Source of the DNA: Terriglobia bacterium
Lineage (GTDB): Bacteria; Acidobacteriota; Terriglobia; Acidiferrales; UBA7541
NCBI GenBank assembly: GCA_963695545.1
Contig: OY968796.1
Location: 2,688,001-2,752,000, forward strand
Direction of reading: 5' to 3'
DNA length: 64,000 nucleotides
Position numbers and translations under genes: made by a program. Of the stretch, positions 35,021-60,785 are shown in pieces; within the stretch, counting starts at the first letter, position 1, and each line of letters starts with the position of its first letter. The notes beneath the pieces are model-generated. The model was not told the origin of the DNA. It worked only from the letters and a program-made list of their open reading frames with translations, and made no database searches.

Positions 35021-35040
35021 GGGATCCCTTTCCGTAGATC

Positions 35041-41496: not shown

Positions 41497-42870
41497 ATGG
41501 CGCGACCCCGCGGCACGTCTCCGACCTTCGGCCTTTTTCTCGGATTGATCATCACCCTCGCCGCTGTGGTGGCCTATTCGCGCTATATCACCGTGCAAAT
41601 CTCTGGCCTGAAGAAACTGCAAACCGATTTGACCGAGCGCGATCGCAAGGACTCTCTTCAATTGCTTCGCGCTCAGAACGATCTGAATTCTCTCGCGCTC
41701 GCCATGCGCGACATGCTGGATAACGATGAACCCTATCCCATCACCGCTTGGTCCGCGCAGTTCGAGCGCATTCACGCCGATCTCGCTGACGCGCTCCAGC
41801 GCGAGCAGAGTCTTGCCGTCGCCACCCGCACCCCCGATCAGCGCGAATATCTGGCCACATCGCTCGCGCAATTTTGGGATGCGGTCGATCGCACGTTTTC
41901 GCTTGCGCAGCAAGGCAAGGATCGCGACGCGCGCGATCAGATTCGCATCACGCTGCAAGCGCGCCAGGCCGCTCTCAGCACCGCCGTCGCTCGCTTGCTC
42001 GTTGAAAACAATGAGAGCGAAGAACAAGCCGCTGTCCAGATCACGCAAATTTATGACAAGGTGCAGCGGCAGGTTTACTGGTTTCTTACCGCAACTCTCG
42101 GTGCAATTCTTCTTACCAGTCTCTATTTGATTTATTCAAACCGCCGCTTGTTCGCGCAGCTCGCCGCACTTTCCGAGCAGCGCAGTGAGCTCGCGCAGAA
42201 ATTGATCGCCACGCAGGAATCGACTCTGCGCCACATTTCGCGCGAGCTGCACGACGAGTTCGGCCAGATTCTCACCGCGGTCGGTTTGATGCTCGGCCGC
42301 GCCGAGCGCCACGCGCCGGAAGGTTCCCCCATTCGCGCCGAGTTGCGCGAGGTCAGCGAGATCGCGCAGTCCACGCTCGATCGCGTTCGCAGTCTCTCGC
42401 AAGCGCTGCATCCGGTGATGCTCGATCAATCCGGATTCGAGAACACCATCGATTGGTACATCGCCACCGTCGAGAAACAAGCCGGAATTTCCATCGCCTA
42501 CGAAAAATCCGGCGCTCCGTTTCCCGTGCCCGCTAGCGCGGGAATTCACATCTATCGCATACTGCAGGAGGCATTGAATAACGTCGTGCGTCATTCAGGC
42601 GCGCGCGAGGTCTCGGTGCGGCTGCGCTTTCGCCCGGCCGATTTGGAGCTAGAAGTGGAAGATCACGGCAAAGGATTCGTCGCGCACGCCGCCGGGCACG
42701 CAGCGCAGGCTGCGCACGGAATCGGATTGGTCGCGATGCGCGAGCGCGCCGAGCTGCTTCGCGGCGCAATTAGATTTTCTCATCCAGCGCAAGGCGGGAC
42801 GCTGGTGCGCCTCACGGTGCCGAGAGCTGGCGCCAGCGGCGACGAAAGGCCGGATGCGCATGGCGAATAA
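41497..42870 (+). CDS. Membrane sensor histidine kinase (two TMs, helical periplasmic domain, HisKA_3)
   Basis: ISRELHDEFGQ, QEALNNVVRHS, EDHGKGF, GIGLVAMRER. Confidence 0.93.
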   Translation: MARPRGTSPTFGLFLGLIITLAAVVAYSRYITVQISGLKKLQTDLTERDRKDSLQLLRAQNDLNSLALAMRDMLDNDEPYPITAWSAQFERIHADLADALQREQSLAVATRTPDQREYLATSLAQFWDAVDRTFSLAQQGKDRDARDQIRITLQARQAALSTAVARLLVENNESEEQAAVQITQIYDKVQRQVYWFLTATLGAILLTSLYLIYSNRRLFAQLAALSEQRSELAQKLIATQESTLRHISRELHDEFGQILTAVGLMLGRAERHAPEGSPIRAELREVSEIAQSTLDRVRSLSQALHPVMLDQSGFENTIDWYIATVEKQAGISIAYEKSGAPFPVPASAGIHIYRILQEALNNVVRHSGAREVSVRLRFRPADLELEVEDHGKGFVAHAAGHAAQAAHGIGLVAMRERAELLRGAIRFSHPAQGGTLVRLTVPRAGASGDERPDAHGE

Positions 42871-43489
42871 AATTTCAGTATTGCTGGTCGACGACCACAA
42901 TCTCGTTCGCCGCGGTTTCCGGCGAATGCTTGAGGATGAGCCGGACATCGACGTCGTGGGCGAAGCGTCTGACGGCAAGGAAGCGATTCGCCTGGCAAAG
43001 CGGTTGCGGCCGCAAGTGATCGTGATGGATTGCGCGATGCCGGAAATGAACGGTCTCGTAGCGACGCGGCGCATCCTCGCGGATTCGCCGTCGTGCGCAA
43101 TTCTGATGTTGAGCATGCACTCAGAGGACACGCTGGTGCGCCAGGCGCTCGACGCCGGCGCGCGGGGATATGTGCTGAAAAACGCGATCGATCTTGAATT
43201 AGCGACTGCAATCCGAAAGGTGGCCGAGGGCGAAACCGTTCTCGAACCGAAGCTTGCGCGCGCCGCCACACTCAAAGGTGAAAAGCCCGCCGGGCTTACC
43301 GCGCGGGAACTTGAAATTTTGCAATTCATCGTCGACGGCAAATCGAACAAGGAAATCGCGGAGGATCTCTCATTGAGCGCCAACACCGTCGCCGTCCACC
43401 GCGCGAACATCATGAGCGCGCTGGGAATTCACAAGACCGCGGAACTTGTGGCCTATGCGATCCGCAATGGTTTGGTGAGCATTCCTTGA
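42860..43489 (+). CDS. NarL/FixJ-family response regulator
   Basis: VLLVDDH, VMDCAMP, LTARELEIL...SNKEIA...HRANIM. Confidence 0.95.
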   Translation: MANKISVLLVDDHNLVRRGFRRMLEDEPDIDVVGEASDGKEAIRLAKRLRPQVIVMDCAMPEMNGLVATRRILADSPSCAILMLSMHSEDTLVRQALDAGARGYVLKNAIDLELATAIRKVAEGETVLEPKLARAATLKGEKPAGLTARELEILQFIVDGKSNKEIAEDLSLSANTVAVHRANIMSALGIHKTAELVAYAIRNGLVSIP

Positions 43490-45207
43490 ATCGCAGATCG
43501 TTCCTCATGGGGATTGCTGGCCTGGCCTCCGCATCGAGCCTGCGACTGCCCGTCGTCGGATTCGACGATGTGCGCGCGGCATCCCCGCCGCAAAATCCCG
43601 GCCCCGGATTTCGGTTGACGGACATCACAGCGGCAGCCGGCATCGATTTCAACCACTACACCGGGGCGTTTGGCGGAAAGCTGCTCCCGGAAACGCTGGG
43701 CTCGGGCTGCGCTTTCCTCGATTACGATGGCGACGGCTGGCAAGATATTTTGCTGATCAACAGCATGGATTGGCCGGGCCACCAGCAGAAGCGCGCGACG
43801 CCCCGACTGTATCGCAACAATCGCAACGGCAGTTTCACGGACGTCACGCGGCAAGCGGGCCTCGATCTCGAAATGTACGGCATGGGCGCGGCGGTCGGCG
43901 ACTACAACAACGACGGATATCCGGACATTCTGATCACCTGCGTCGGACAGAATCGTCTGTTCAAAAACACGGGCAAGGGGACGTTTATCGACGTGACGCG
44001 AGCGAGCGGGCTTGCGGGCAAACAGAGTTTCAGCACTTCGGCGCTGTGGTTTGATTACGACCGCGACGGTTTGCTGGATCTTTTCGTTTGCAATTATGTG
44101 AGATGGTCGCCGGCTACGGACGTTTTTTGCAGCCTGGACGGAAAGCACAAATCCTATTGCACACCGGAAGCGTATCGCGGCGAGACCTGCTGGCTCTACC
44201 GCAATCGCGGCAATGGGACGTTTGAAGACGTCACGGCGACCAGCGGAATTTTCGACAGCAGCTCAAAATCGTTCGGCGTAGCGATGTTCGATTACGACAA
44301 CGATGGCTGGCCCGATCTGATCGTGGCCAACGACACGCAGCCCAACAAACTTTATCGCAACCGGCGCGACGGCACATTTGAGGACGTCGCCGTGCAGGCC
44401 GGAATCGCTTTCAGCACCGAGGGAAAAGCGCGGGCTGGAATGGGCGTGGACACCGCGGATTTCGATGGATCGGGGCGGCCGGGCGTCGCGATCACGAATT
44501 TCGACAACGAGATGATCGGGCTCTATCGCTCGATCGGCGGCGGAGTTTACCAGGACGTTGCGCAAACGGCGGGGGTCGGACTCGCTTCGATGAACACGCT
44601 GGGATTCGGCTGCGCGTTTCTCGATGTGGATTTGGATGGAGCGGTGGATTTGGCCGTGGCCAACGGGCACATTGATGAAACGGTGCGGAACATTCGCGGC
44701 AACGTGGGCTACGCGCAGTCGCCGCAACTTTTCCTGAACGATGGCCGCGGGGATTTTCACGATGTGGCCGCGGCGTTGGGCGCCGATTTCGCAAAACCAC
44801 GCGTGGGCCGTGGTTTGTGCTACGGCGATTTCGATCGCGACGGCGATCTGGATATTTTGCTGACTACGAATAATGGCCCCGCGGTTCTGTTGAGGAACGA
44901 CAATCTTTCGGGAAACAAGAGCATTCGGTTTCATCTGGTGGGCACGAAATCGAATCGCGACGCGATTGGCGCGGTGGTTCAAATCTTTCACGAAGGATCG
45001 ATGCAATCGCGCATAGTCAAAACCGGATCGAGCTATTTATCGCAATCCGAATTGCCGGTGACATTCGGCGTGGGACCGCGTGACGCGATCGATCGAATGG
45101 TGATCGATTGGCCGAGCGGCAGAACCGAAGAGTACAAGAATCTCGCGGCCGGCCGCGCATACGAATGTGTTGAATCGAAAGGCATCGCGCCCCGATCAGG
45201 CACCTAA
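43486..45207 (+). CDS. Tat-exported CRTAC1-family protein (FG-GAP repeats plus ASPIC/UnbV)
   Basis: NRRSFL leader; repeated DYDxDGxxD motifs; SNRDAIGA, SYLSQS, WPSG; TTGA overlap with the regulator gene. Confidence 0.9.
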   Translation: MNRRSFLMGIAGLASASSLRLPVVGFDDVRAASPPQNPGPGFRLTDITAAAGIDFNHYTGAFGGKLLPETLGSGCAFLDYDGDGWQDILLINSMDWPGHQQKRATPRLYRNNRNGSFTDVTRQAGLDLEMYGMGAAVGDYNNDGYPDILITCVGQNRLFKNTGKGTFIDVTRASGLAGKQSFSTSALWFDYDRDGLLDLFVCNYVRWSPATDVFCSLDGKHKSYCTPEAYRGETCWLYRNRGNGTFEDVTATSGIFDSSSKSFGVAMFDYDNDGWPDLIVANDTQPNKLYRNRRDGTFEDVAVQAGIAFSTEGKARAGMGVDTADFDGSGRPGVAITNFDNEMIGLYRSIGGGVYQDVAQTAGVGLASMNTLGFGCAFLDVDLDGAVDLAVANGHIDETVRNIRGNVGYAQSPQLFLNDGRGDFHDVAAALGADFAKPRVGRGLCYGDFDRDGDLDILLTTNNGPAVLLRNDNLSGNKSIRFHLVGTKSNRDAIGAVVQIFHEGSMQSRIVKTGSSYLSQSELPVTFGVGPRDAIDRMVIDWPSGRTEEYKNLAAGRAYECVESKGIAPRSGT

Positions 45208-45260
45208 TGTTTTTGCACTATTGTGCCGGTCTGCAATCAGTGGCTTAATCCCGCCCGCTT
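45106..45260 (+). repeat. Diverged direct repeat, copy 1: CRTAC1 3' end plus dyad box 2 promoter
   Basis: 45166-45260 aligns without gaps to 51616-51710 (69/95 identical by manual count); similarity extends upstream with small indels. Confidence 0.8.
45203..45249 (+). promoter_or_regulatory. Dyad box 2 (TAATGT-TTTT-GCACTA) plus extended -10-like TGg-CTTAAT
   Basis: 21/22 identity with 51653-51674; 23-nt spacing to the -10-like hexamer. Confidence 0.6.
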
Positions 45261-45328
45261 GTAGTTCAAGTCCCGATTTCGGGGAAACCAAAAATCTATT
45301 TTGCGCTTGCGTCGTCGGAGGTGCACCG

Positions 45329-46399
45329 ATGTCCCGCGAAATGTCACGGCCCCTCAGTGCAATCGTTCCAGTGATTTGTGTTTTGGCGCTCTGCTGCAGC
45401 GGAACGCTCGCGCGCGCGCAAGGATGCGTGGCCGCGCACTCGAATCAGGGTCCCATGGACGAACTGTGCGATTCGGATACCACGCGTGGAGTGGATGGCG
45501 GAGCCTGGATTCACAGACTCACCGTGAATATTGGTTATCGCGTTTTCAGTTCTGAATATTATTTCGTCGGGACGCAGGAACTTCCGAAATCGCCCGCAAC
45601 CGAGAATCATCAGAATATTTGGGACGTGGGGATCGATTTTCGTCTGTCGCACAGGTGGAGTCTGATTGCCGACGTGCCGGTGTATGAAGGAGATCGCAAT
45701 CAGATCTATCCGCCCTCAGGGATTTTTCGAGTGGCCGGCATTGGCGACATGACGGTGGGCGCGCAAACCTGGATCTTTCGCCCGCCGACGGAGAGCAACG
45801 GAAATATTGCATTCAGCGTCTCGCTTAAAATTCCCACGGGCGTCGACAATGCCACCGGGGCAGCGCTGCTGCATGGGCAAACGGTTATCGCCACAGCCGA
45901 TCAATCGCTTCAGCCGGGCGATGGTGGCTGGGGATTCGTGCTCGCGTCGCAGGCCTACAGACAAATCTGGCTCCAGACTATGCTGTACTTCCAAGGGCAA
46001 TACTTGTTCAACCCGGAGGACACCAACGGCGTGGCTACTTTCCGCACCCAGCCGGGACAGAGCGTGATGTCTATAACCGATCAATATTTGTTTCGGGGTG
46101 GCTTTTCACACGGCATACCACATTTTCGGCGCCTGGAGTTGAGTCTGGGTGGCCGCGTGGAAGGTATACCCGTGCGCGACGCGTTCGGCGCGAGCGACGG
46201 TTTCCGACGCCCGGGCTACATCGTTTCGATCGATCCCGGGTTGATGTTCAGCTTCTATCACGAAACGATTTCGGTGAATGGTCCCTGGGCGTTGCTGCGC
46301 GATCGGGAAAACAGCGTTCCCGAAATGGCAGCGGGCGAGAATGGCGATGCGTTCTTCGCGAACTACACCGTTATCGCAACAATGTCTCACTACTTCTAG
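45329..46399 (+). CDS. Putative outer-membrane beta-barrel protein with Cys/His near the mature N-terminus
   Basis: GGAGG RBS before ATG 45329; signal peptide ending ARA-QGCVAAHS; GIGDM, SLKIPTG, QPGDGGWG; alternating strands; terminal Phe. Confidence 0.65.
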   Translation: MSREMSRPLSAIVPVICVLALCCSGTLARAQGCVAAHSNQGPMDELCDSDTTRGVDGGAWIHRLTVNIGYRVFSSEYYFVGTQELPKSPATENHQNIWDVGIDFRLSHRWSLIADVPVYEGDRNQIYPPSGIFRVAGIGDMTVGAQTWIFRPPTESNGNIAFSVSLKIPTGVDNATGAALLHGQTVIATADQSLQPGDGGWGFVLASQAYRQIWLQTMLYFQGQYLFNPEDTNGVATFRTQPGQSVMSITDQYLFRGGFSHGIPHFRRLELSLGGRVEGIPVRDAFGASDGFRRPGYIVSIDPGLMFSFYHETISVNGPWALLRDRENSVPEMAAGENGDAFFANYTVIATMSHYF

Positions 46400-46409
46400 A
46401 CGCGCGTAG

Positions 46410-46958
46410 ATGACGCACCTTTGCCATCGGCGACGGATTGCGCGGGCATGCGCTCAGCTTCTCTGCGGAATCGTTGTAGTGGCGCTCACGGCGAGATCGG
46501 AAACTTATCCCGAGCTGCCCGTGAAGGATTTGGCAGGCCGAGCGCAATCGCTTTCCGAGCATAAGGGCAAGATCGTGGTAGTCAATTTCTGGGCCACGTG
46601 GTGCGGGCCGTGCAGGGAAGAATTGCCCATGCTCAATCAGCTCGCCGGCCAATATCCCGCGGCGGACGTTTTCTTCGTGGCGATCTCGTTGGATGATGAG
46701 ACGACGCAAAACAAGATTCCCGGCTTCCTCGAAAAGAAAAAAATCACGCTTGCGGTATGGACGGGAGCAACTACCGATACACTCAAGCAGCTCGAGCTCG
46801 GCAAATTCGTTCCCGACACGATCATTGTGGATCGAGACGGCACGATTGTCGGCAGAATTTTGGGAGAGGCGCAACGCAAGGATATTACGACTCGAGTGGA
46901 TTGGCTTCTGAATGGGAGGATGGGTGCAGCGCCAAATCCGGTGGTGAAGCACCTCTGA
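46410..46958 (+). CDS. TlpA/ResA-like thiol-disulfide oxidoreductase
   Basis: VVNFWATWCGPCREELP; N-terminal hydrophobic anchor. Confidence 0.92.
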   Translation: MTHLCHRRRIARACAQLLCGIVVVALTARSETYPELPVKDLAGRAQSLSEHKGKIVVVNFWATWCGPCREELPMLNQLAGQYPAADVFFVAISLDDETTQNKIPGFLEKKKITLAVWTGATTDTLKQLELGKFVPDTIIVDRDGTIVGRILGEAQRKDITTRVDWLLNGRMGAAPNPVVKHL

Positions 46959-46964
46959 AATCAA

Positions 46965-48029
46965 ATGACGCTACTGACTGAACCAATTGGAAGTATCCCT
47001 CGACCGCCGCAGTTGCTGGCGGCGATGGCGGACTTGGGCGCATCGCGCATTTCGAGCGCGCAGTTTCGAGTTACAGAAGACGCGGCGCTGCGCGATACCA
47101 TCGTGCGCTTTGAAGAAACGGGATCGCCGGTGATCACCGATGGCGAGCAGACGAAGTCGAGTTTCGCTACTTATCCGCTGGCGGGAATCTCGAATCTTGC
47201 GCCCAATGGAGTGGTGATTCCGTTTGCGGACGGCCATACGCGGCAACTTCCCAAGCTGACGGCGGGCCCATTTCGATATGGGGTTCACGCGGCGACTTTC
47301 CTGGAAGCCGCGCGGCGATACGCCCACCGTCCGTTGAAGCAGGCGGTGATCTCGGCATCGGCGTTGAGTTTGCTTTATCCGCAGGAAGGGCTGGCGGATT
47401 ACTCGCGCGAAACGTTTATCGACGATCTTACCGACGAGGCGGAGCGCGACATTCGCGAGTGCATCGATGAAGGCGCCTTCTGCGTGCAAATCGATTTCAC
47501 GGAGGGCCGCCTCGCTCTGAAACTGGATCCTTCGGGCAACCTGCTGAATTCATTTATCAATTTGAACAATCGTGTGCTCGATCGGTTCACCGCCGCAGAG
47601 CAGAAGAAAATTGGCGTGCACACGTGCCCGGGCGGCGACCACGACTCCACGCATAGCGCCGACGTGGATTACCTCGAATTGCTGCCACTTCTGTTTCGCT
47701 TGAAAGTCGGAAGGTTCTACATTCAGTTGGCGAGCGAAAGCGATCGCGGCCAAGTGCTGAAGGCCGCGCGGGACCTTCTGAAACATGGGCAGACGCTTTT
47801 CGTGGGGGTCACGGACCCCATCAATCCGAAGGTGGAGACAGCGGAGCAAGTCCGGGATCGCGTGCTTGAAGCTGCCAAATTTATTCCCGTGGAATCGCTT
47901 GGGACCACTGACGACTGCGGTTTTTCTCCGTTTGCCGACGATACATCCACTTCGCGCGACACTGCGTTCGCAAAAATTCGTAATCGCGTGGAAGGCACGC
48001 GGCTGGCGTCGGCTATCCTGGGAGTTTAG
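46965..48029 (+). CDS. Cobalamin-independent methionine synthase II family (single catalytic domain) Zn thiol-alkylating enzyme
   Basis: IGSIPRP, ITDGEQ, VHTCPG (HxC), DDCGFSPF; 354 aa, lacks the N-terminal MetE half. Confidence 0.82.
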   Translation: MTLLTEPIGSIPRPPQLLAAMADLGASRISSAQFRVTEDAALRDTIVRFEETGSPVITDGEQTKSSFATYPLAGISNLAPNGVVIPFADGHTRQLPKLTAGPFRYGVHAATFLEAARRYAHRPLKQAVISASALSLLYPQEGLADYSRETFIDDLTDEAERDIRECIDEGAFCVQIDFTEGRLALKLDPSGNLLNSFINLNNRVLDRFTAAEQKKIGVHTCPGGDHDSTHSADVDYLELLPLLFRLKVGRFYIQLASESDRGQVLKAARDLLKHGQTLFVGVTDPINPKVETAEQVRDRVLEAAKFIPVESLGTTDDCGFSPFADDTSTSRDTAFAKIRNRVEGTRLASAILGV

Positions 48030-48104
48030 GTTCGCTGGGCGAACACTCTGGTTTCGGCGCAGCGCTAGAGAAAACACACGTCGGGAAAAAGCGAGGCGAG
48101 GGAG

Positions 48105-50039
48105 TTGACGCGTCGTGCGAACGCCCGCATGATTTGGGCCCGGATGCGATTTCATTTCCAGGTTTGTCTGCTAGTCCGAACCGAGCCCCGAGAATCTCTG
48201 TCTTTGTTTCGTGCGGATGACCGCGTTTTTCGACAGAGCGACGCGGAGCCCCCTCACGCCATCGACGCCCTGCCACTTATTTCTAGCGCTCGCCATTTCT
48301 GCACGGCCTGCCTGTTGATTGCGCTGTTTGCTCAGGCGCTTTGCGTTTTCGGGCAGGCGCCGGCGGCGAAACCCGATGCTGTCTACTTCGAGGATATCGC
48401 CGCGCGAGCGGGAATCACGGCGCTCGATGTCTATGGCGGGGACAAGCACAAGGAATTCATTATCGAGACCACGGGCAACGGCGCGGTGATCTTCGATTTC
48501 GACAACGACGGCTGGCCCGACATTTTTTTGCCAAACGGATCGACCGTCGAAGGTTTCCCGCCAGGCGAAGCGCCGACCAGTCATCTCTATCACAACAATC
48601 ATGACGGGACTTTCACGGACGTCACCGTGAAGGCTGGCTTGGCGCACGCGGGTTGGGGACAGGGCGCGTGCGTGGGCGACTATGACAACGACGGCTATCT
48701 CGATCTGGCCGTGACTTATTGGGGACAGACGATTCTGTATCACAACAACGGCGATGGGACTTTCACCGACGTGACGGAAAGAGCCGGGTTGAAAACGGCG
48801 CGCGCGGAATGGAGCACGGGATGCAGCTTTGTCGATTACGACCGCGACGGAAAAGTGGATCTTTTTCTTTCGCGTTATGTGGATTTCGACTACGACACGG
48901 TGCCGCGCCCGGGCCAGGCCGAATCGTGCAATTGGAAAGGAATCGCGGTGATGTGCGGTCCGCGAGGGCTGAAGACCAGCGTAAATGCGCTGTACCACAA
49001 CAACGGCGACGGCACGTTCACCGATGTTTCGGTGCAATCGCACATCACGCAGGCTTCGCCGTGTTTCGGTTTTACGGCGCTCACGGCGGACTTCGATATG
49101 GACGGGTGGCCGGATATCTATGTGGCGTGCGATACCACGGCCAATTTGCTTTATCACAACAATCATGACGGAACGTTTACGGAAGTGGCCAAGCAGGCGG
49201 GCGTGGCTTACAACGAAGACGGGCTGCTGCAGGCGGGGATGGGATTGTCGGCAGCGGATTACACGCACGACGGGCTTCAATCCGTGGTGCAAACGAATTT
49301 CAGCGACGATTCGCCGACGCTGTACTTGAACCGCGGCGGGATGAATTTCGACGATGTGACGTACACCGCGGGCCTGGGAAAAATTCGGAATTGGCTCGGG
49401 TGGGGAGTGCAGTTCTACGATTTCGACAACAGCGGCTGGCCGGGAATCCTGATTATCAACGGTCACGTGTATCCGGAGGTCGACAGCAAGAGTTTGGGGA
49501 CGAGCTACCGGGAGCCGCGCGTGCTTTATCGCAATTTGCGCGACGGCACGTTTGCCAACGTCACGGCCGACGCCGGCCCAGCGCTGAGCGAAATGCACTC
49601 CGGGCGCGGGATTGCGCTCGGCGATCTTTTTAACGACGGTCATCTCGAGGCGCTGGTGAACAACATGAACGAGAAGCCTTCGCTCTATTACAACACTCAG
49701 GCCGTCGGGAATTTCATCAGTTTGCAGCTCGTAGGCGTGCAGTCGAATCGCGCGGCGATTGGGGCGGTGGTCACGCTGGAAACTGGCAGCGACCGGTACG
49801 CGCAGGAAGTTCGCAGCGGCGGCGGATACATTTCGCAGAGTGACCTGCGATTGCATTTTGGTTTGGGCAAGGCGACACACGCTGAGAAAATTATGATTCG
49901 TTGGCCGAGCGGATCGGTTGAGACGCTGCAGAATCTTCCGGCAAATCAATACTACGTGGTGCGAGAGGGAAGCGGGGTCGATGCCAGTAGGACGCACGGC
50001 GTGAGCCCGACGCCGGCGCTTGTTGGCGCACAGAAATAA
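48105..50039 (+). CDS. CRTAC1-family protein (FG-GAP plus ASPIC/UnbV); true start uncertain, probably ~48270
   Basis: Signal-like CLLIALFAQALCVFG; DFDNDGWPD repeats; SNRAAIGA, GYISQSDLRLHFGLG, WPSG. Confidence 0.88.
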   Translation: MTRRANARMIWARMRFHFQVCLLVRTEPRESLSLFRADDRVFRQSDAEPPHAIDALPLISSARHFCTACLLIALFAQALCVFGQAPAAKPDAVYFEDIAARAGITALDVYGGDKHKEFIIETTGNGAVIFDFDNDGWPDIFLPNGSTVEGFPPGEAPTSHLYHNNHDGTFTDVTVKAGLAHAGWGQGACVGDYDNDGYLDLAVTYWGQTILYHNNGDGTFTDVTERAGLKTARAEWSTGCSFVDYDRDGKVDLFLSRYVDFDYDTVPRPGQAESCNWKGIAVMCGPRGLKTSVNALYHNNGDGTFTDVSVQSHITQASPCFGFTALTADFDMDGWPDIYVACDTTANLLYHNNHDGTFTEVAKQAGVAYNEDGLLQAGMGLSAADYTHDGLQSVVQTNFSDDSPTLYLNRGGMNFDDVTYTAGLGKIRNWLGWGVQFYDFDNSGWPGILIINGHVYPEVDSKSLGTSYREPRVLYRNLRDGTFANVTADAGPALSEMHSGRGIALGDLFNDGHLEALVNNMNEKPSLYYNTQAVGNFISLQLVGVQSNRAAIGAVVTLETGSDRYAQEVRSGGGYISQSDLRLHFGLGKATHAEKIMIRWPSGSVETLQNLPANQYYVVREGSGVDASRTHGVSPTPALVGAQK

Positions 50040-50048
50040 GTTTATCGC

Positions 50049-51545
50049 CTAGGTCAATGATGAGCGATCGGGCGGACGGCGGAAGGCGCCGCACGCTTCT
50101 TCAATCTTTGCCGCGACGGCGAGAATCGCTTCTTCCTGCCATGGACGCCCCACGATTTGTACTCCGATCGGCAGACCTTCCGGCGATTGACCGACGGGCA
50201 CGACCACGGCGGGATTGCCAAGCAAGTTGAACCACTGTGAATATGCCATAGCCTTGAGATATTCGATTTTGCGTCCCGCGACAGTCCACTCTCGTTCGCC
50301 GTGGCGAAATGCCGGAATCGCGCAAACGGGACAGATGAGGATGGGGGAGTGCTCCATCTTTGCGAGGAATTTTCTGCGCAGATCATCGCGCTGGAGAAGC
50401 GTATCGAGGAGTTCGTCGGCGCTAAGCGGCGGCTGGGATGCGACGTAACCGCGAAACTGCGTGAGAAGCGGGCTCAGGTCGGCATCGTGGCCGGCGAGCA
50501 GAGGAGCGAAGGCCATTTGTCCGGCGCGGCCGAAAAGATTCCACCACAACTTCCAAACTTGATCGAGATTTTCGGGACGCCATTCTTGAACGTGAAATCG
50601 CTGTTGCTCGAGTGCCCCAGCGGCTCGGCGAACGGCGGCAGCGGTTTCGGGAGTTGCCGGCGCAAAATCGTGTGAATCAAAAAATCCGACGCGAAGTTTT
50701 CGGAGTTCGCGATCGCCCCATTTTCGCAATGCGACTGGCGCGGCACACGGATCGCCGGGGTCGGGGCCGGCCATCACCTCAAAGAGCTTTTTCACATCGC
50801 CCACGGTGCGAGCCATCGGGCCTACGACTCCAAGCTGCGCGAAAGGGCCGGCCGATTCTGGAAAATGGCCGGTGGAAGGAATTCGGCCGGGCGTCGGCTT
50901 GAGGCCGCAAATGCCGCTGAAATGTGCGGGAATGCGAATCGAGCCGCCGCCGTCGCTCCCGACGCCCCCGGCGGAACAGCCTGCGGCGATGGCGGCGGCT
51001 TCTCCACCGCTGGAGCCGCCGGGCGTGCGGCCGAGATCCCAGGGGCTATTCGTGCGGCCGTAGAGAAGGTTGTCCGTTTCATACGCCATCAGAAATTCGG
51101 GAACGTTGGTGTTTCCGAGAATGATCGCGCCGGCGGCGCGCAATCGCGCGACGAGGGGAGCGTCGCTGACGAAGCGATTGCCCGCGCGTATCCGGCTACC
51201 GCATTCGCACGGGAATCCGGCGACGTCAATCGAGCTTTTGATCGTGATGGGAACGCCGCGGAGAGCGCGCGCCGCGCCATTCTTGTAATGACGCGACCGC
51301 GCCTGGTCCGCGTCGCGCGCCTCGGCTCTGGATTGGTCGAAGCAGAAGTGCACGAATGAGTTGAGTTTGGGATTCACACGTTCGATTTGAGCGATGTGCG
51401 CTTCGACTAATTCCGAAGCGGAAACTTTGCTCGCGCGAACGAGATTTGCCATCTCAACCAAAGAGCTGTAGACGATCTCGCTCAAATTCGTCACCGGTTC
51501 CTTCGCGATTTGGGAATCGAATGTTAGCACGTGGCGTCCGCTCAA
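50049..51545 (-). CDS. Amidase-signature family enzyme; start possibly GTG 51494
   Basis: GVPITIKS, PGGSSGGEAAA, GSDGGGSIRIPA, GLKPTPG, GLPIGVQIV. Confidence 0.93.
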   Translation of the reverse strand: MSGRHVLTFDSQIAKEPVTNLSEIVYSSLVEMANLVRASKVSASELVEAHIAQIERVNPKLNSFVHFCFDQSRAEARDADQARSRHYKNGAARALRGVPITIKSSIDVAGFPCECGSRIRAGNRFVSDAPLVARLRAAGAIILGNTNVPEFLMAYETDNLLYGRTNSPWDLGRTPGGSSGGEAAAIAAGCSAGGVGSDGGGSIRIPAHFSGICGLKPTPGRIPSTGHFPESAGPFAQLGVVGPMARTVGDVKKLFEVMAGPDPGDPCAAPVALRKWGDRELRKLRVGFFDSHDFAPATPETAAAVRRAAGALEQQRFHVQEWRPENLDQVWKLWWNLFGRAGQMAFAPLLAGHDADLSPLLTQFRGYVASQPPLSADELLDTLLQRDDLRRKFLAKMEHSPILICPVCAIPAFRHGEREWTVAGRKIEYLKAMAYSQWFNLLGNPAVVVPVGQSPEGLPIGVQIVGRPWQEEAILAVAAKIEEACGAFRRPPDRSSLT

Positions 51546-51560
51546 GCTTTCTCGCCAAGC

Positions 51561-51710
51561 GATTCGGCGAGCGGCAGGATCGAGAAGGCCAAGAGCTGGC
51601 GACCGTTAGCGCGACTGCGTTGAATCGAAGGTGAAAGCGCGGCGATCGGGTCCCTAATGCTTTTGCACTATTGTCCCAGTTTGACGAGCGTGTCGTAATT
51701 CGTCCCGCTT
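51561..51710 (+). repeat. Diverged direct repeat, copy 2: decayed CRTAC1 3'-end fragment plus dyad box 2 promoter
   Basis: Residual translation ...SGRIEK.../...DCVESKVKARRSGP* versus ...SGRTEE.../...ECVESKGIAPRSGT* in 43486-45207. Confidence 0.78.
51653..51699 (+). promoter_or_regulatory. Dyad box 2 (TAATGC-TTTT-GCACTA) plus extended -10-like TGt-CGTAAT upstream of the cytochrome operon
   Basis: 6-4-6 dyad with one mismatch at 51655-51670; 23-nt spacing to CGTAAT. Confidence 0.6.
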
Positions 51711-51841
51711 TCGTGGTCTGATCGCCGTGTCACTCAGAGATATTGCCGATTTGAGTGATAAGATTCGCGGCTGCGAAGGGATTTCGGCCCGGGGGCATGT
51801 GTGTCATTTCTCGTCTCGATCCCTTTGTTTCCTGACTCACG

Positions 51842-54685
51842 ATGAGAAGGCTTAGCCGCATCCTGCTGGCCGCGCTTTTCCTTTCAGCGGCGTATCTCTT
51901 CGCGTGGCCGTCGGCGACGGTGCCGTATTTTGGGGCCGTGATCCTGCATCTGATCGCAGGCGTGGTTTTTCTGTTCAGTTTGATTTTTGTATTTCGCGGG
52001 ATCTGGCGAGACGCGAGTCCAATTGCGCGGATCGGTTGGATTCTCCTGGTTCTCGGCGGAATCGCGGGAGCGGCGCTGATCTATACGGGGACGCCCCACA
52101 GTAAATGGGATTTGGTGTACGCGCACATCGGGGCGTGCATGGCGGGGGGATCGCTACTTCTATCGGAGTGGATCGGCAAGCGCGGATTTATGCGCGGCGG
52201 GTATTTCGCCGGCGTGCTGCGGGCGACGATTGTTTTGATCGCCGCCGGAGCCGTAGCGGCGGGCGCGTATTGGGTTCGCACGGTGCCGTGGCAGCGCGCG
52301 AATCGCATTGACAATCCTTCGATTGCTCCAGAAACGATGAACGACGAAGGCGATGGGCCGAGCGGCCCATTTTTTCCGAGCTCCGCGCAGACCGAGGGCG
52401 GAGTGCACATTCCGGCGAGCTATTTCACGGAGTCCGATAGTTGCGAGCGCTGCCACGCGGATATTTACAAGGAATGGCAAGGCTCGGCGCACCATTTTTC
52501 ATCGTTCAACAACGCGTGGTATCGCAAGAGCATCGAGTACATGCAGGACACGGTGGGAATTAAGCCGTCGAAATGGTGCGCCGGGTGTCATGATCCCGCG
52601 CTGCTCTATAGCGGAATGTTTGACCGGCCGATCCGCGAAGTTGAGGACACTCCGGCGGGGCAAGCGGGCCTTGGTTGCATGATGTGCCATTCCATCGCGA
52701 AGGTGAAAAGCACGATGGGCCAGGGAGATTTCGTGCTGGAGTATCCTGCGTTGCATCGTTTGGCCGCGAGCAAAAATCTTTGGGTGCGCCGCTTTCACGA
52801 TTTCCTGATCGATCTCAATCCCGAGCCGCATCGGCGCGTGTTCTTGAAACCGTTCATGCGCACGCAGACCGCGCAATTTTGCTCTACGTGCCACAAAGTG
52901 CATCTCGATGTGCCGGTGAACCACTATCGCTGGGTGCGGGGCTTCAACGAGTACGACAACTGGCAGGCCAGCGGCGTATCGGGCGGAGGCGCGCGTTCGT
53001 TTTATTATCCGAAGGCGCCGCAGATGTGCGCGGACTGTCACATGCCGCTCACGAATTCTACGGACGCAGGAAACGTCGCCGGGTTCATCCATTCCCATCG
53101 TTTTCCGGCGGCGAATACCGCGCTGCCTTTCGTGAATGGGTTGACGGCGCAACTCGACGCCACGGAAGATTTCCTTACGAAGAATCAAGTGAGCGTGGAC
53201 ATTTTTGCCATTTCGCCGGAAAGCGAATCGCGCGCGGCGAACCAATCGAGCGCCGCAGCCGCGAGCCCTGAATTCGCGACGACGTTCGCGGTGGGCGAAG
53301 AAGCGGAGACGGCCGGCCCCGCGAATGCTTCGCCGGAGTCCGCGACGCCTACCGCGATGCTGACGGCTCCGATGAATCGCGCCGATGTCGAGGTGCGCGG
53401 GGGCGGAACTTATCGCGTGGATGTTGTGGTGCGCACGCGCACCGTTGGACACTTTTTCCCAGGCGGCACGGTAGACGCGTACGATTGCTGGCTCGCGCTT
53501 GACGCCACGGATGACAAAGGCCGGGTGATTTTCTTCAGCGGATACGTTCAGGATGATGGCAAGGGGCCCGTGGATCCGAGTGCGCATTTTTACCGCTCGT
53601 TGCAAATCGACGCCCACGGCAACGCGATCACTAAACGCAACACCTGGTCCACACGCGCAGTGGTTTACGTTCACTTGATTCCGCCCGGCGCGGCGGACAC
53701 GGTGCACTACCGAATTAAAATCCCGCGCGATGCGGTCGGGCACATACATCTGCGCGCGCGTCTCAATTATCGAAAGTTTGCATGGTGGAATACGCAGTTT
53801 GCGTTCGCCGGCGTGCACGATCCGAGCCAGAGCAATCCCCAGGTGTCCCCGGACTTCGACGATACGCGATGGGTTTTTACGGGTGACCCGTCCCGCGCGC
53901 CCGGCGGCGCCAAGGGGATTCCAAATCTGCCGATTGTGACCATGGCCGAAAACGATCTGACGGTGGGGATTCTGCCTGAAGGCGCGAAGGAGCCTGCGCC
54001 AAAAATTGCGGCGAACGGCGACGATTGGTCCCGTTGGAACGATTACGGAATTGGCCTGCTCACGCAAGGCGATCTTTCGGGCGCCGCATTCGCATTTCGA
54101 GAGGCCACAGCAGCCGCACCGGAGAATCCCGATGGCTGGGTGAACATCGGCCGAGTGCGCGTGCAAGAAGGGAACGACGCCGCAGCGGAGCAGGCGCTCG
54201 AACGCGCGCTCGCGCTCAGCCCGCACCTTGCGCGCGCGCACTATTTCTATGCCAGAGCGTTGCGCAACGAGGGCAAGTACGACGAGGCCATGACGCACTT
54301 GCGCGAAGTGCTGGAGCAATATCCGGATGATCGTGTGGTGCACGATGATCTCGGACGCATTCTTTTCCTCGAACGCCGCTACTCGGATGCGATTCGCGAA
54401 TTTCAAGCCACGACTGCGATCGATCCCGAGGATTTGGAAGCGAATTACAATTTAATGCTGTGCTACACGGGTTTGCGGCAGCCCGGAACGGCGGGAGAAT
54501 ACGAGAAGAGATATTTGCGTTTTAAGGCCGACGAAGCGTCGCAAACGCTCACGGGTCCGTACCTGCGCACGCACCCGTACGACAATCTGGAACGGCAACT
54601 TATTCACGAACACACCTCTAGCTACGTTGAGTCTTCACAGGAAAAGCGATATGAAGCGGCTGCCGGCGGGAGCGGTGCAAATTGA
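51842..54685 (+). CDS. Membrane-anchored multiheme (five CxxCH) c-type cytochrome with C-terminal TPR repeats
   Basis: About 5 N-terminal TM segments; CERCH, CAGCH, CMMCH, CSTCH, CADCH; VGHFFPGG; TPRs from WNDYGIGLL. Confidence 0.88.
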   Translation: MRRLSRILLAALFLSAAYLFAWPSATVPYFGAVILHLIAGVVFLFSLIFVFRGIWRDASPIARIGWILLVLGGIAGAALIYTGTPHSKWDLVYAHIGACMAGGSLLLSEWIGKRGFMRGGYFAGVLRATIVLIAAGAVAAGAYWVRTVPWQRANRIDNPSIAPETMNDEGDGPSGPFFPSSAQTEGGVHIPASYFTESDSCERCHADIYKEWQGSAHHFSSFNNAWYRKSIEYMQDTVGIKPSKWCAGCHDPALLYSGMFDRPIREVEDTPAGQAGLGCMMCHSIAKVKSTMGQGDFVLEYPALHRLAASKNLWVRRFHDFLIDLNPEPHRRVFLKPFMRTQTAQFCSTCHKVHLDVPVNHYRWVRGFNEYDNWQASGVSGGGARSFYYPKAPQMCADCHMPLTNSTDAGNVAGFIHSHRFPAANTALPFVNGLTAQLDATEDFLTKNQVSVDIFAISPESESRAANQSSAAAASPEFATTFAVGEEAETAGPANASPESATPTAMLTAPMNRADVEVRGGGTYRVDVVVRTRTVGHFFPGGTVDAYDCWLALDATDDKGRVIFFSGYVQDDGKGPVDPSAHFYRSLQIDAHGNAITKRNTWSTRAVVYVHLIPPGAADTVHYRIKIPRDAVGHIHLRARLNYRKFAWWNTQFAFAGVHDPSQSNPQVSPDFDDTRWVFTGDPSRAPGGAKGIPNLPIVTMAENDLTVGILPEGAKEPAPKIAANGDDWSRWNDYGIGLLTQGDLSGAAFAFREATAAAPENPDGWVNIGRVRVQEGNDAAAEQALERALALSPHLARAHYFYARALRNEGKYDEAMTHLREVLEQYPDDRVVHDDLGRILFLERRYSDAIREFQATTAIDPEDLEANYNLMLCYTGLRQPGTAGEYEKRYLRFKADEASQTLTGPYLRTHPYDNLERQLIHEHTSSYVESSQEKRYEAAAGGSGAN

Positions 54686-56406: not shown

Positions 56407-56408
56407 AA

Positions 56409-59400
56409 ATGCCTCGATCGGCCCGCACCGGGGGGACCGTGAATCGTTGGAAGCGAATTCTCGCGCCGGCGGCGATGATCGCTTGCGCGTTCCTGTGCGT
56501 TGCCTCGCGAGGCGCGAAGGATTCCGCGGCTTTCCAGCAGACGGCGACTGGGGACAGCGCGACGCATCTCGAAGCGGTGCGCGAAAATAATTTCGGCGTT
56601 GCGTTGATGAATCGCCAGCAATTTGGCGACGCGCTTGCGAAATTCCAGGCGGCGTGCGCGCAAGTGCCTAAGACCGATGTTCCGTGCGTGAATGTGGGCA
56701 TCACGCTTTTCAACCTGCAGCGCTACGACGAGGCGCGCAAGCTACTCGCCGAAATTGTAGGCCTCGACCCACAGAGCGCGCGAGCGTGGTTCAACCTCGG
56801 CCTCCTAGATAAAGCGGCGGGCGCGTTCGATGCGGCGCTCGTCGATTTCAACCGAGTCGCACAGATCGATTCCGACGACGCGGATTCGCGATACTTCGTC
56901 GGTCTTATTTATTCGCAGCAGAAACAGTACGACAAGGCCATCGCGTCGTTTCGCGAGGCGCTGGCGCGGAATCCGTTCCATCTTTCGGCGGAGTTCGGAT
57001 TGGCGCAGGCGGAGCAGCGGTCGGGCGATCTTGCGAGCGCAAAAGAGAATTTGGAAAGTTTCGAGCATCTGAACGCGACAAAACTCGGTGTGCCGATTGG
57101 CTCCGCGTACGGCCAGCAGGGGAATTATTCGCTTACGGCGTCGATGACGCCCGCGCCCGAGCCCGTGCCGCCGCCAATTCCAGTTCATTTTGTCGATGTC
57201 ACCGCGTCTGCCGGCCTCTCACCGACGCCCTCTCTAGAGAAGCCGGCAGTAGATTCCACGCTCGCTAATTTCCTCGGCAGCGGGGCTTGCGTGATCGACT
57301 ACGACGGCGACGGCAAGCCCGACATTTTTTTTCTCGATGCGGATGGACGCGGCGACGCGGCGCTCTATCACAATATCGGCGACGGCAAGTTTGTGGATGT
57401 GACGAAAGCCGCGGGACTCGATCTTCACGGAGAGGGAACCAGCTGCGCCGTCGGCGATTACGACAACGACGGTAAGCCGGATTTGGCGATTGCATGGAAC
57501 GGCCACCTTATGCTTTTTCACAACGAGGGGAACGGCGTTCTCAAAGACGTGACCGAGAAGGCGGGGATTAAGACCGACGGCCTTCTGCTGGGCATAACTT
57601 TCGTCGATTACGATCACGACGGCGACCTCGATCTGTACGTCACACGCTTCGAAAACTTTCCTTTTCCCGGCCCCTCGCAGCCTTTTGCGTTTCCCGCGGA
57701 CGCGTCTGCGCCTGGAAACGTTCTCTGGCGCAACAACGGCAATGGCACGTTCACGGAATGGACAAACGAAACGGCTCTCGGCGGTGACAAGCCTTCTGTT
57801 GCAGCGATCGCGAGCGACGTGAACAACGACCGCGCGGTCGATCTCGTTGTCACAGGCTGGGGCAAATCGCCGCAGGTGTTTCTGAACCCGCGCGAAGGAA
57901 AATTCAAGGCCATAACTCCATGGACGTCCGACATGCCGGCGCCAACCGCGGGAGCCGTGGCGCTCGATTTCGACAAGGATGGCCGGATGGATCTCGCGTT
58001 CACGCACTGGGGCGCGCCGGGTCTCAGTTTGTGGCGAAACGTCGATGGGAAATCGTTCGAGCGCGTCGCGCTGCCCGACCTCGGCTGGGAGCGCGGTTGG
58101 GGAGTGGCGCCGATCGATTATGACAACGATGGCTGGATCGACCTGGTGGCCGTCGGAGAAACCAAATCGGGTGAAGGGCGGATTGCGCTGTTGCGCAACG
58201 AAGGCCCCGCTGGATTTCGAGACGTATCTCACGACGTCGGCCTCGACAAAATCGTGCTGCGCAATCCGCGCAGTGTGATCGCATTCGATTACGATGGCGA
58301 TGGCGCAGTTGATTTGCTGATCACGCAAAACAATTTGCCGCCCGTTTTGCTTCGCAACGTGGGAGGCAGCCGAAATAATTGGCTCGAGCTCGCGCTCAAA
58401 GGCGAGCATGACAACGCGACGGGAATTGGCACGAAAGTTGAGATTTCCGCCGGCGCTCTCCAGCAGAAATGGGAAGTTCCCGGTGCGTCGGGATATTTGG
58501 GGCAAGGCTCGGCCGAGATTCACGCCGGCTTGGGCGACGAGCAACAAACCGACATCGTCAGGCTGCTTTGGCCTACGGGCGTGCTTCAGGACGAGCTGGA
58601 TATTCCCGCTGGGAAACGGAACGAAATCACTGAGATCGACCGCCGCGGAAGTTCCTGCCCGATTGTGTTCGCGTGGAACGGGAAGAAATTTGATTTTCTT
58701 GCGGATGTGATCGGTCCGGGCATCGTGGGTCACTGGATCGGACCGAACCAGCGGAATACTCCCGACCCCGAGGAATATTTTAAAGTTGCTGGATCGGAGG
58801 TGAGCCCGAAAGCTGGGCACATTCTATTCCGGATGATTGAGCCGATGGAGGAACTCGATTACCTCGATCGTGTGCGGCTGCTCGCTGTTGACCACCCCGC
58901 CGATGAGGAAGTTTATCCAAACGCATATTTCGCGAGTAATCCGCCGTTCCCGGAATTCAAGGTGATCGCGAGTCGCGGAGCGCATGCTCCCGCGGGCGCG
59001 TGGGACGATCAGGGGCGCGACGTTCTGCCGCTACTTCTCAGACGCGATCGAAAATATATTTCGGATCTGCCGGAGGCCCCGTACCAAGGATTCGCGGGAA
59101 TGCACTCGCTGAAACTCGATCTTGGTCCGTGGGATGCATCGCGCCCGCTGCGCCTGCTGATGGATGGGTTCACGGATTATTTTTCCGCGAACTCGATGTA
59201 CGCTGCGTGGCAGGCGGGGATTCAGCCGGTCGCGCCATTCATCGAGGCGCAGGATGCATCGGGCAAATGGATTCGCGTGGTGGACGACATGGGATTTCCC
59301 GCGGGTCTCGCGCGCACGATGGTTGCGGATTTGACGGGAAAACTTCCGCCCGGAACGCGCTACATTCGGATCACCACAAATCTGAAAATCTATTGGGATC

Positions 59401-59951
59401 GGATTCGCGTAGATAATTCGCCCGCCAATTTGGCGTATCGCGTCACCGAGGCGCCTTTGTCCGGCGCGAATTTGCGTTTTCGGGGCTATCCGCGCGTGAT
59501 CGAAGGCAATCCGAAGAACGACATCACGTACGTCTATGACGACGTGAGCCGAAGTGGTCCGTACGCGCGACAGGCGGGGAACTATACCCGCTACGGCGAC
59601 GTCACCGAGCTTGTGCGATCGAGCGACGACGAATACGTGGTCTTTGGTTCGGGCGACGAAGTCGCGGTAGATTTCGACGCAACGCGCTTACCCGATTTGC
59701 CGGCCGGTTGGACGCGCGATTATTTCTTCTACGCGGATGGCTTCGCCAAGGACATGGATTTCTACGCGGCGTATGGAGATACCGTCTCGCCGCTTCCGTT
59801 TCACACGCTGGTTCCGTATCCATATCCGCAAGGCGTTTCTTATCCGATGGACGACGAACATCTGAATTATTGGCTCGAGTACAACACGCGCGGAGTGGCG
59901 GGCCCGGCGAGCCCGAGCTTCAAGTTCAACTATCCGTCAGAATCACACTGA
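56409..59951 (+). CDS. Large exported protein: TPR, FG-GAP repeats, ASPIC/UnbV and an unknown C-terminal domain; start possibly GTG 56439
   Basis: N-terminal TPRs; DYDGDGKPD-type repeats; GIGTKVE, HAGLG, LWPTG; SSCPIVFAWNG followed by ~430 aa. Confidence 0.85.
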   Translation: MPRSARTGGTVNRWKRILAPAAMIACAFLCVASRGAKDSAAFQQTATGDSATHLEAVRENNFGVALMNRQQFGDALAKFQAACAQVPKTDVPCVNVGITLFNLQRYDEARKLLAEIVGLDPQSARAWFNLGLLDKAAGAFDAALVDFNRVAQIDSDDADSRYFVGLIYSQQKQYDKAIASFREALARNPFHLSAEFGLAQAEQRSGDLASAKENLESFEHLNATKLGVPIGSAYGQQGNYSLTASMTPAPEPVPPPIPVHFVDVTASAGLSPTPSLEKPAVDSTLANFLGSGACVIDYDGDGKPDIFFLDADGRGDAALYHNIGDGKFVDVTKAAGLDLHGEGTSCAVGDYDNDGKPDLAIAWNGHLMLFHNEGNGVLKDVTEKAGIKTDGLLLGITFVDYDHDGDLDLYVTRFENFPFPGPSQPFAFPADASAPGNVLWRNNGNGTFTEWTNETALGGDKPSVAAIASDVNNDRAVDLVVTGWGKSPQVFLNPREGKFKAITPWTSDMPAPTAGAVALDFDKDGRMDLAFTHWGAPGLSLWRNVDGKSFERVALPDLGWERGWGVAPIDYDNDGWIDLVAVGETKSGEGRIALLRNEGPAGFRDVSHDVGLDKIVLRNPRSVIAFDYDGDGAVDLLITQNNLPPVLLRNVGGSRNNWLELALKGEHDNATGIGTKVEISAGALQQKWEVPGASGYLGQGSAEIHAGLGDEQQTDIVRLLWPTGVLQDELDIPAGKRNEITEIDRRGSSCPIVFAWNGKKFDFLADVIGPGIVGHWIGPNQRNTPDPEEYFKVAGSEVSPKAGHILFRMIEPMEELDYLDRVRLLAVDHPADEEVYPNAYFASNPPFPEFKVIASRGAHAPAGAWDDQGRDVLPLLLRRDRKYISDLPEAPYQGFAGMHSLKLDLGPWDASRPLRLLMDGFTDYFSANSMYAAWQAGIQPVAPFIEAQDASGKWIRVVDDMGFPAGLARTMVADLTGKLPPGTRYIRITTNLKIYWDRIRVDNSPANLAYRVTEAPLSGANLRFRGYPRVIEGNPKNDITYVYDDVSRSGPYARQAGNYTRYGDVTELVRSSDDEYVVFGSGDEVAVDFDATRLPDLPAGWTRDYFFYADGFAKDMDFYAAYGDTVSPLPFHTLVPYPYPQGVSYPMDDEHLNYWLEYNTRGVAGPASPSFKFNYPSESH

Positions 59952-60525: not shown

Positions 60526-60785
60526 GGGATTCTCCTCGTGGGCGAGCTCGGTTGGCGGTCGACGGCATTCTAGCACGGAGTTTCACGCATTGGGCCGCGC
60601 AGACGGCCGGACTTCCACGCGTCGCATCGGTACAGAGAATCGACGATTCGATCTGATATTGATTCGTACCTGCGTCTGGAGTGCATCCTATAATCACGAG
60701 GACAGAGCCCAAGGCGTCGCGATGCAAGGTCTAGAGTCGGCCAATTATTTTCCCGGCAACGATCGCCTGCGAAAGTCGTGATTCG

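Follow-up and report, generated by a model that had tools for sequence, protein, structure and literature searches.

The window analysed here, 64,000 nucleotides of a Terriglobia genome of 4.16 Mb (G000:C1:2688001-2752000), contains genes for a membrane-bound pentaheme cytochrome with a TPR arm (CYT), four CRTAC1-type propeller proteins (CR1, CR2, CR3 and TPR-CR4) and a two-component system composed of a sensor histidine kinase (HK) and a response regulator (RR). Our comparative analysis showed that CYT and the CRTAC1 protein encoded directly behind it are a real module, undescribed in the literature searched. The two-component system likely belongs to this module, a link that was likewise not found in the literature searched, and likely activates it through a predicted palindromic site, TART-N8-AYTA. 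With little more than even confidence, and on genomic grounds, we lean towards an inducible, quinol-fed periplasmic reductase, made up of CYT and its CRTAC1 partner, that would act on an imported compound and be switched by HK and RR through this site. The sequence-only reading, made earlier from the letters of this stretch, had known of no described function for the combination, and our literature search found no description of the module or of the motif (subscription papers, including that on the structure 5ZE8 discussed below, and bioRxiv supplements were outside its scope).

Conservation of the cytochrome-CRTAC1 unit

The conserved co-occurrence on which the sequence-only reading had staked its proposal was found by neighbourhood comparison in three sets of loci. 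Among 80 genome loci with close CYT orthologs, CR3 lies directly 3' of CYT in 71 of the 74 with enough sequence, and TPR-CR4 follows CR3 in 45/55. Phylum-wide, a CRTAC1 gene is directly 3' of the cytochrome in 29 of 39 loci (a hand tally; 40 loci were chosen across the phylum and one incomplete locus was dropped), and in metagenome loci of a distant subfamily it directly follows the cytochrome in 46 of 54 (80 loci, 26 of them too short). With only 10 ASPIC/UnbV genes and a single CYT gene in the 4.16 Mb of the host genome, so regular a succession is far above chance. CYT matches were found in 122 of 200 genomes of the class and in 51 of 151 of the phylum (the latter including one unpublished genome, G062); homologs also occur in Bacteroidota and Calditrichota, the two of ten distant representatives that were named being Snuella lapsa and a Calditrichota metagenome-assembled genome (MAG).

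The genes of the unit are closely coupled. The TTGA overlap of CYT and CR3 was confirmed, and TPR-CR4 begins after a gap of 2 nt. In a cytochrome subfamily that lacks TPRs, a C-terminal TPR is fused instead to the adjacent CRTAC1 (5/5 checked), and this relocation between genes points to a unit of three parts, namely cytochrome, TPR and propeller. It speaks indirectly for the docking by TPR domains put forward in the sequence-only reading. It is conceivable that the propellers have no catalytic role and act as scaffolds or lectins in TonB-type uptake loci, sharing the regulation of the cytochrome without binding it, and that the cytochrome merely carries electrons or is a gas-binding sensor. 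Six other CRTAC1 genes of this genome do have TPR proteins, TonB-type barrels, sugar enzymes or unrelated 7-9-heme cytochromes as neighbours. The model of CR3, the only one of the four propellers that was folded, matches murine CRTAC1 (9ETN; TM 0.71, E 2e-32), with fungal N-acetylglucosamine lectins as the next fold matches, and a weak search among proteins longer than 1658 amino acids (aa) found no CYT-CRTAC1 fusion. We nevertheless regard such a role as improbable, since one CRTAC1 clade follows CYT, translationally coupled, across 27-76% identity, the TPR moves between both genes, and invariant residues of CYT suggest an active site.

Fold, hemes and membrane domain of the cytochrome

The description of CYT in the sequence-only reading as a membrane-anchored pentaheme cytochrome with TPRs was accurate: the protein has five CxxCH motifs (residues 201, 246, 279, 347 and 396), C-terminal TPRs and an N-terminal membrane domain with five predicted helices. 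The predicted structure (predicted local distance difference test score 93) aligns over residues 191-708 with pentaheme cytochrome c552 from Thermochromatium tepidum (5ZE8; Z 19.0, root-mean-square deviation 3.8, 346/385 aligned), which was also the top Foldseek match. Searches of PDB with TPR-containing profiles were dominated by TPR matches; a TPR-free CYT profile matched 5ZE8, cytochrome c554 and MccSep, the last of which was not among the matches listed in the fold searches of the CYT model. The match spans the whole domain, a pentaheme cap with an Ig-like stem, and places CYT in the c552/PHC structural family (PMC11976967; for PtdA, 10.1101/2023.11.21.568154). CYT differs from c552 and PHC proteins in its additional five-helix membrane domain with two conserved histidines, its TPR arm and its CRTAC1 partner, and in having no Cys between hemes 4 and 5.

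MccSep (ExtKL) is described as a polysulfide reductase of Geobacter sulfurreducens, in which C239 ligates heme 2 and U325 is the catalyst (10.1101/2025.11.18.688581); its ext cluster is described as including an outer-membrane porin (PMC11976967). CYT shares with it five hemes, the C-terminal Ig-like stem and an aligned GH-x-x-P-x-G loop. However, U325 aligns with T543 of CYT, and Cys is found in none of 105 sequences either at CYT 536-547 or between hemes 4 and 5, where the equivalent of C239 is missing. CYT also scores only 15-18 bits on NF040886, against a cut-off of 250. Membership of CYT in the MccSep family was therefore rejected.

Four histidines outside the heme motifs, H217, H330, H419 and H537, are near-invariant (103-105 of 105 sequences and 31 of 31). 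Because four conserved distal histidines are available for five hemes, heme 2, whose distal side has no conserved His or Cys, is probably open or carries an unusual ligand. Across 31 diverse CYT sequences, K352, D372, D545 and R644 never vary, which suggests an active site; the tail histidines H922 and H924 are well conserved. In several CYT subfamilies (L103, L106-L108, L113-L116, L134-L140), the motif of heme 1 is CX4CH rather than CX2CH.

Residues 1-150 form five helices in the model, with H36 (87/97) in helix 2 and H95 (90/90) in helix 4, two histidines that the sequence-only reading had not noted. This pair likely binds one bis-His heme b; two membrane hemes were considered and rejected, as there are only two conserved membrane histidines. 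Paired conserved histidines in membrane helices are a trait shared with membrane b/c cytochromes that interact with quinol, although in CYT both the heme b and the reactivity with quinone are predictions. Cytochrome c assembly genes are present in the host genome. A bacterial CRTAC1 gene among heme-enzyme genes has been published in one case, within clusters of hydrazine-synthase homologs (PMC12758564); the heme partner there differs from CYT, and the text available states no function for the CRTAC1 protein. ASPIC/UnbV paralogs are also mentioned in Solibacter (PMC3174227).

A sensor-linked propeller

The sequence-only reading had placed the kinase, the regulator and a Tat-type CRTAC1 protein in one overlapping run. 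This was upheld: the HK gene runs into the RR gene (Table 1), RR and CR1 are joined by TTGA, and the N-terminal part of CR1 is twin-arginine-like (NRRSFL). CR1-type genes adjoin the kinase in 10/10 loci of one set and in 28/40 of a second (hand count). Kinase orthologs were found in 63 of the 200 class genomes, 55 of which also hold CYT; in 18 of these 55 the two genes are at most 25 kb apart, across four families and in several gene orders, some of them divergent.

A quick IQ-TREE phylogeny of 76 hand-chosen propeller sequences, computed with no bootstrap, placed all 23 kinase-adjacent CRTAC1s in one clade (Shimodaira-Hasegawa-like approximate likelihood-ratio test 100), nested inside the CYT-adjacent clade. 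A C-x9-C loop is kept in all 23 of them and in 18 close CYT-linked CRTAC1s. Owing to the nesting and the shared loop, CR1 is likely a duplicate of the propeller that partners the cytochrome, and it likely serves the sensor as an accessory receptor. CR2 and other CRTAC1 paralogs of the genome fall outside the CYT-linked clade. CR2 is 80% identical to a paralog at G000 2637284-2639137, which is situated between two other multiheme cytochromes, and looks incidental to the module. The single complex of all four propellers envisaged by the sequence-only reading is not supported: CR1 more likely serves the sensor, and CR2 is of another clade. FG-GAP and UnbV_ASPIC do exceed their Pfam cut-offs in all four proteins, as it had claimed. 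The C-terminal 436 aa of TPR-CR4 (window 58641-59951) had no Pfam or PDB sequence match and fall in large unnamed Atlas clusters, the best of which has 3032 members. Other CRTAC1 genes of the genome (G000:C1:2634741-2640942 and 4049178-4063200) flank unrelated cytochromes with 8, 7 and 9 CxxCH motifs, TPR proteins and TonB-type barrels.

The periplasmic domain of HK gave only a weak match to 4HB_MCP_1 (E 0.0012, below the cut-off), and HK and RR did not reach the NCBIfam cut-offs for MctS and MctR (122 vs 700 and 185 vs 300). TorS-TorT-TorR, in which a kinase with a periplasmic helical bundle acts with an accessory periplasmic protein, controls torCAD, an operon for a membrane pentaheme cytochrome. 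The arrangement predicted here from the genes resembles it in combining a sensor kinase, an accessory periplasmic protein and a pentaheme cytochrome target. It differs in that the cytochrome fold is unrelated, there is no molybdoenzyme, the regulator is of the NarL type rather than the OmpR type, and a CRTAC1 propeller takes the accessory role. Near HK-RR, a pair of genes for a GMC oxidoreductase and gluconate-2-dehydrogenase subunit 3 was seen in L174, L193, L197, L201, L210, L233 and L238; neighbouring genes for a nucleoside hydrolase, a ureide permease, PfkB and an amino-acid permease look like lineage synteny.

The predicted regulator site

A de novo motif search of 32 upstream regions returned the TART-N8-AYTA palindrome with scores of 91-108, against 22-33 in shuffles. 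A run for an 18-bp palindromic motif did no better than shuffles, and a generic scan for promoters and terminators found neither site of the window and returned counts at chance level. A matrix was built from 17 sites in 16 regions. In the genome-wide ranking, the site at 51655 before CYT, a training site, came first, and that at 45205 before the barrel gene, outside the training set, came second; the third and fourth best scores were at G000:C1:2642569 (minus strand) and 3470761. The strict pattern has two matches in the window and none in 100 shuffles. The 45205 site begins on the stop codon of CR1, and the same position recurs in several genera.

The presence of the site follows that of the kinase. 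In held-out 6-kb regions upstream of CYT, the site was found in 14 of 20 kinase-positive genomes, in which the kinase is unlinked, but in only 1 of 20 kinase-negative genomes; within families f1 and f4 it was found in 7/7 and 0/9, respectively. The kinase was correctly predicted from the site in 15 of 15 further genomes (7/7 with the site had the kinase; 8/8 lacking the site did not). The site abuts a -35/-10 promoter: a TTG-led hexamer stands immediately 3' of it, and 42 of the 84 sites have a -10-like A2/T6 pattern at a spacing of 17 nt, against a mean of 4.5 and a maximum of 12 in shuffles. The genes behind these 84 sites encode CYT (41), TonB-type barrels (9), TPR-CRTAC1 (7), Cys/UGA barrels (2) and, in a few instances each, other proteins; 15 were unassigned.

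These results suggest that the kinase/regulator pair likely activates the cytochrome module through the predicted site. The geometry is that of CrbR, a LuxR-family protein described as activating from the ACTU motif, an inverted repeat that immediately precedes the RpoD -35 box (PMC5715377), although the motif letters (among the listed ACTU sites), the kinase and the targets all differ, and RR scores 65 bits on the ErdR model against 390. A different regulator that is merely co-inherited with the kinase could read the palindrome, as the data are an association and kinase presence is partly structured by family. The within-family counts, the 15 predictions, the recurrence of the site at the CR1 stop codon and a geometry that fits a LuxR-family activator make this highly improbable. 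The proposal of the sequence-only reading that the two-component system is linked to the cytochrome thus gained ground, both from the shared promoter palindrome and from the nesting of the sensor-linked CRTAC1 among cytochrome-linked ones. A first reading of HK-RR-CR1 and barrel-TlpA as chance neighbours was rejected on linkage, the CRTAC1 tree and the site data.

Several observations weigh against this interpretation. The kinase is dispensable, as about half of the genomes with CYT lack it (63 vs 122 of 200); it lies within 10 kb of CYT in 0/55 full-length top loci, 8 of the 63 kinase genomes have no CYT match, and 12 of the 40 kinase loci have no adjacent CR1. No site was found within 6 kb of CYT in 6 of the 20 kinase-positive genomes, and the significance of the site counts is overstated, as the test genomes are hand-picked, related and incomplete MAGs. 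To these are added the simple construction of the propeller tree described above, the finding of the barrel in 0/29 sampled genomes of its own family, and a CYT subfamily of about 750 aa that lacks both the membrane domain and a downstream CRTAC1 (L126-L132, L095).

The 2642569 site lies approximately 150 nt before a TonB-type barrel gene in another CRTAC1 locus. In G001, a gene for an alginate-export-type barrel (L083:17223-18899) is behind a site just upstream of CYT, and L003 also has a gene of this kind behind a site.

Gene content of the locus and the barrel operon

The features are listed in Table 1. A minus-strand amidase gene, absent from the sequence-only reading, divides the stretch into two transcription units: HK, RR, CR1, barrel, TlpA, MetE-like and CR2 on the left and CYT, CR3 and TPR-CR4 on the right. 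In the close loci the amidase gene adjoins CYT in 43/67, in either orientation.

Table 1. Features of the kinase-cytochrome locus, in positions of the window
Feature	Position	Strand	Basis
Membrane sensor histidine kinase HK (HisKA_3/HATPase), probable four-helix-bundle periplasmic domain	41497..42870	+	Pfam
NarL/LuxR-type response regulator RR, predicted TART-N8-AYTA binder	42854..43489	+	Pfam; site tracks kinase presence
CR1, Tat-like CRTAC1 propeller from the sensor-linked clade; probable accessory receptor	43486..45207	+	Gene order, tree
Predicted regulator site (45205-45220), -35-like hexamer (45221-45226), 17 nt, -10-like hexamer (45244-45249)	45205..45249	+	
Porin-like outer-membrane barrel, N-terminal QGC motif, Cys/UGA family	45329..46399	+	Atlas look-alikes, homologs
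Exported TlpA/ResA-like thioredoxin, WCGPC	46410..46958	+	Travels with barrel in homolog loci
MetE-like (Meth_synt_2) protein, probably a passenger	46965..48029	+	Pfam
CR2, CRTAC1 of a different clade; true start probably 3' of 48105	48105..50039	+	Tree, paralog
Amidase-signature enzyme, no evident signal peptide	50049..51545	-	PF01425, E 6e-109
Predicted regulator site (51655-51670), -35-like hexamer (51671-51676), -10-like hexamer (51694-51699) of the cytochrome operon	51655..51699	+	
CYT: five predicted membrane helices, H36/H95, pentaheme c552/PHC-type core, Ig-like domain, TPR arm	51842..54685	+	
CR3, CRTAC1 propeller, constant CYT partner, C-x9-C loop	54682..56406	+	Pfam, gene order, model
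TPR-CRTAC1 (TPR-CR4), C-terminal domain of 436 aa of no known family	56409..59951	+	Pfam
Small exported protein of no known family, recurring near the module	59965..60576	-	Neighbourhoods

The barrel, TlpA and MetE-like genes and the further CRTAC1 are present as first described. The barrel had no Pfam or NCBIfam match, and its Atlas look-alikes are labelled 'porin/transporter'. Its homologs occur in 28 of the 200 class genomes; four of these have the barrel gene next to that of the kinase, and in one it immediately precedes TlpA-CYT-CR3. The closest homologs have no site within the short loci examined. Because close relatives hold a TonB-type barrel in the same slot, barrel-TlpA-MetE likely replaced a TonB-type barrel behind a pre-existing promoter. 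The MetE-like gene is beside the module only in G003 among the relatives and is probably a local passenger.

Barrel homologs were examined in 21 loci, including that of the window. In 3 of the 16 in which the N-terminal motif was found, TGA stands exactly at the mature N-terminal Cys (L220/L192 in G332, L222 in G216 and L223 in G231). SelA, SelB and tRNA-Sec are over their cut-offs in these three genomes; in G000, which has the Cys form, SelA and SelB are not. Where a SECIS hairpin would be expected, a GC-rich stretch common to all three loci follows the UGA, although the predicted folds differ between them. The barrel family is possibly an undescribed selenoprotein porin paired with TlpA, and no such family was found in the available part of a 2026 selenoproteome review (PMC13188914).

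In 12 loci, a gene for an exported protein of 128 aa with the pattern C-x13-C-x3-C adjoins HK-RR-CR1 or separates CYT from the TonB-type barrel (for example L199:15070-15456 and L236:13482-13883); the protein had no Pfam family above the cut-off and was not found in G000. Together with the barrel Cys/Sec, TlpA and the CRTAC1 loop, this protein could relay a thiol-reactive inorganic species such as polysulfide, a selenium oxyanion or copper, the CRTAC1 loop giving in trans the thiol that MccSep holds in cis. The Cys/UGA barrel and TlpA do lie beside the kinase or CYT in 5 of the 28 barrel genomes, and the C-x9-C loop is kept in every kinase-linked and close CYT-linked CRTAC1 compared. We consider such a relay quite unlikely, since neither catalytic region of CYT holds a Cys in any of the 105 sequences, the loop pattern is missing in 10 of 13 distant CYT partners, and the barrel and the small protein are facultative; other CRTAC1 clades have similar Cys loops, which may be structural disulfides.

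The small exported protein in the last row of Table 1 is also encoded close to CYT or to the HK triad in G001, G002, G003, G017, L056, L059 and L128. Positions 14572-41391 of the window form a block that resembles a sugar-utilisation locus, with a TonB-type barrel, a TPR protein, GH2, GH35 and GH53 enzymes, two paralogous 720-aa proteins with no Pfam match (32879-37218) and a propeller-sensor kinase.

Proposed mechanism

In the reading that we narrowly favour, a compound X would enter through an outer-membrane channel of the regulon, which is a TonB-dependent-type barrel in many relatives and would be the Cys/Sec barrel with TlpA here. CR1, as its place in the tree and in the gene order suggests, would bind X and stimulate the kinase. 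The phosphorylated regulator would then bind the site, whose co-distribution with the kinase was observed, and turn on both the CYT-CR3-TPR-CR4 operon and the channel operon. CR3 would be held by the TPR arm and offer X to heme 2, which the tally of four conserved distal histidines for five hemes predicts to be open, and electrons would pass from quinol through the bis-His heme b and the c hemes to X. Of the periplasmic redox system proposed in the sequence-only reading, the conserved cytochrome-CRTAC1 unit and the sensor link stand, whereas CR2 and the MetE-like protein are dropped as members.

The direction of flow, taken by analogy with MccSep, would be the reduction of X, with oxidation about equally probable. 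A specific version of the opposite flow has the same regulon pass electrons from the oxidation of an imported organic compound through CYT to quinone, the electrons entering at heme 2, from a separate periplasmic dehydrogenase or from the product of the amidase. Glycoside hydrolases and TonB-type transporters are plentiful both in the window and in other CRTAC1 loci, and the frequent amidase neighbour of CYT would also fit, but the amidase gene, where co-oriented, sits upstream of the site and hence outside its promoter. A dehydrogenase near the kinase would be provided by the GMC oxidoreductase and gluconate-2-dehydrogenase subunit 3 pair, which was found there in 7-8 of 174 loci, mostly in one family. 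As the closest characterised fold relative, MccSep, is a reductase, we consider this version rather unlikely.

Implications

Acidobacteriota encode many bacterial ASPIC/UnbV proteins, and no biochemical role for these was found in the literature searched. We tentatively propose, with less than even confidence, that the bacterial CRTAC1/ASPIC-UnbV propellers are subunits for the specific binding of ligands. One copy would hand an imported compound to quinol-linked heme b/pentaheme c enzymes that have an open catalytic heme and form a new class, a duplicated Tat-exported copy would be the receptor of the two-component system that induces the enzyme and its outer-membrane channels, and these channels would include an undescribed selenoprotein porin. 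The predicted regulator and its 16-bp site make this testable, and the inducer would likely be both the propeller ligand and the enzyme substrate. If true, the module would represent a heme enzyme of the MccSep fold with a different chemistry and possibly a new selenoprotein family.

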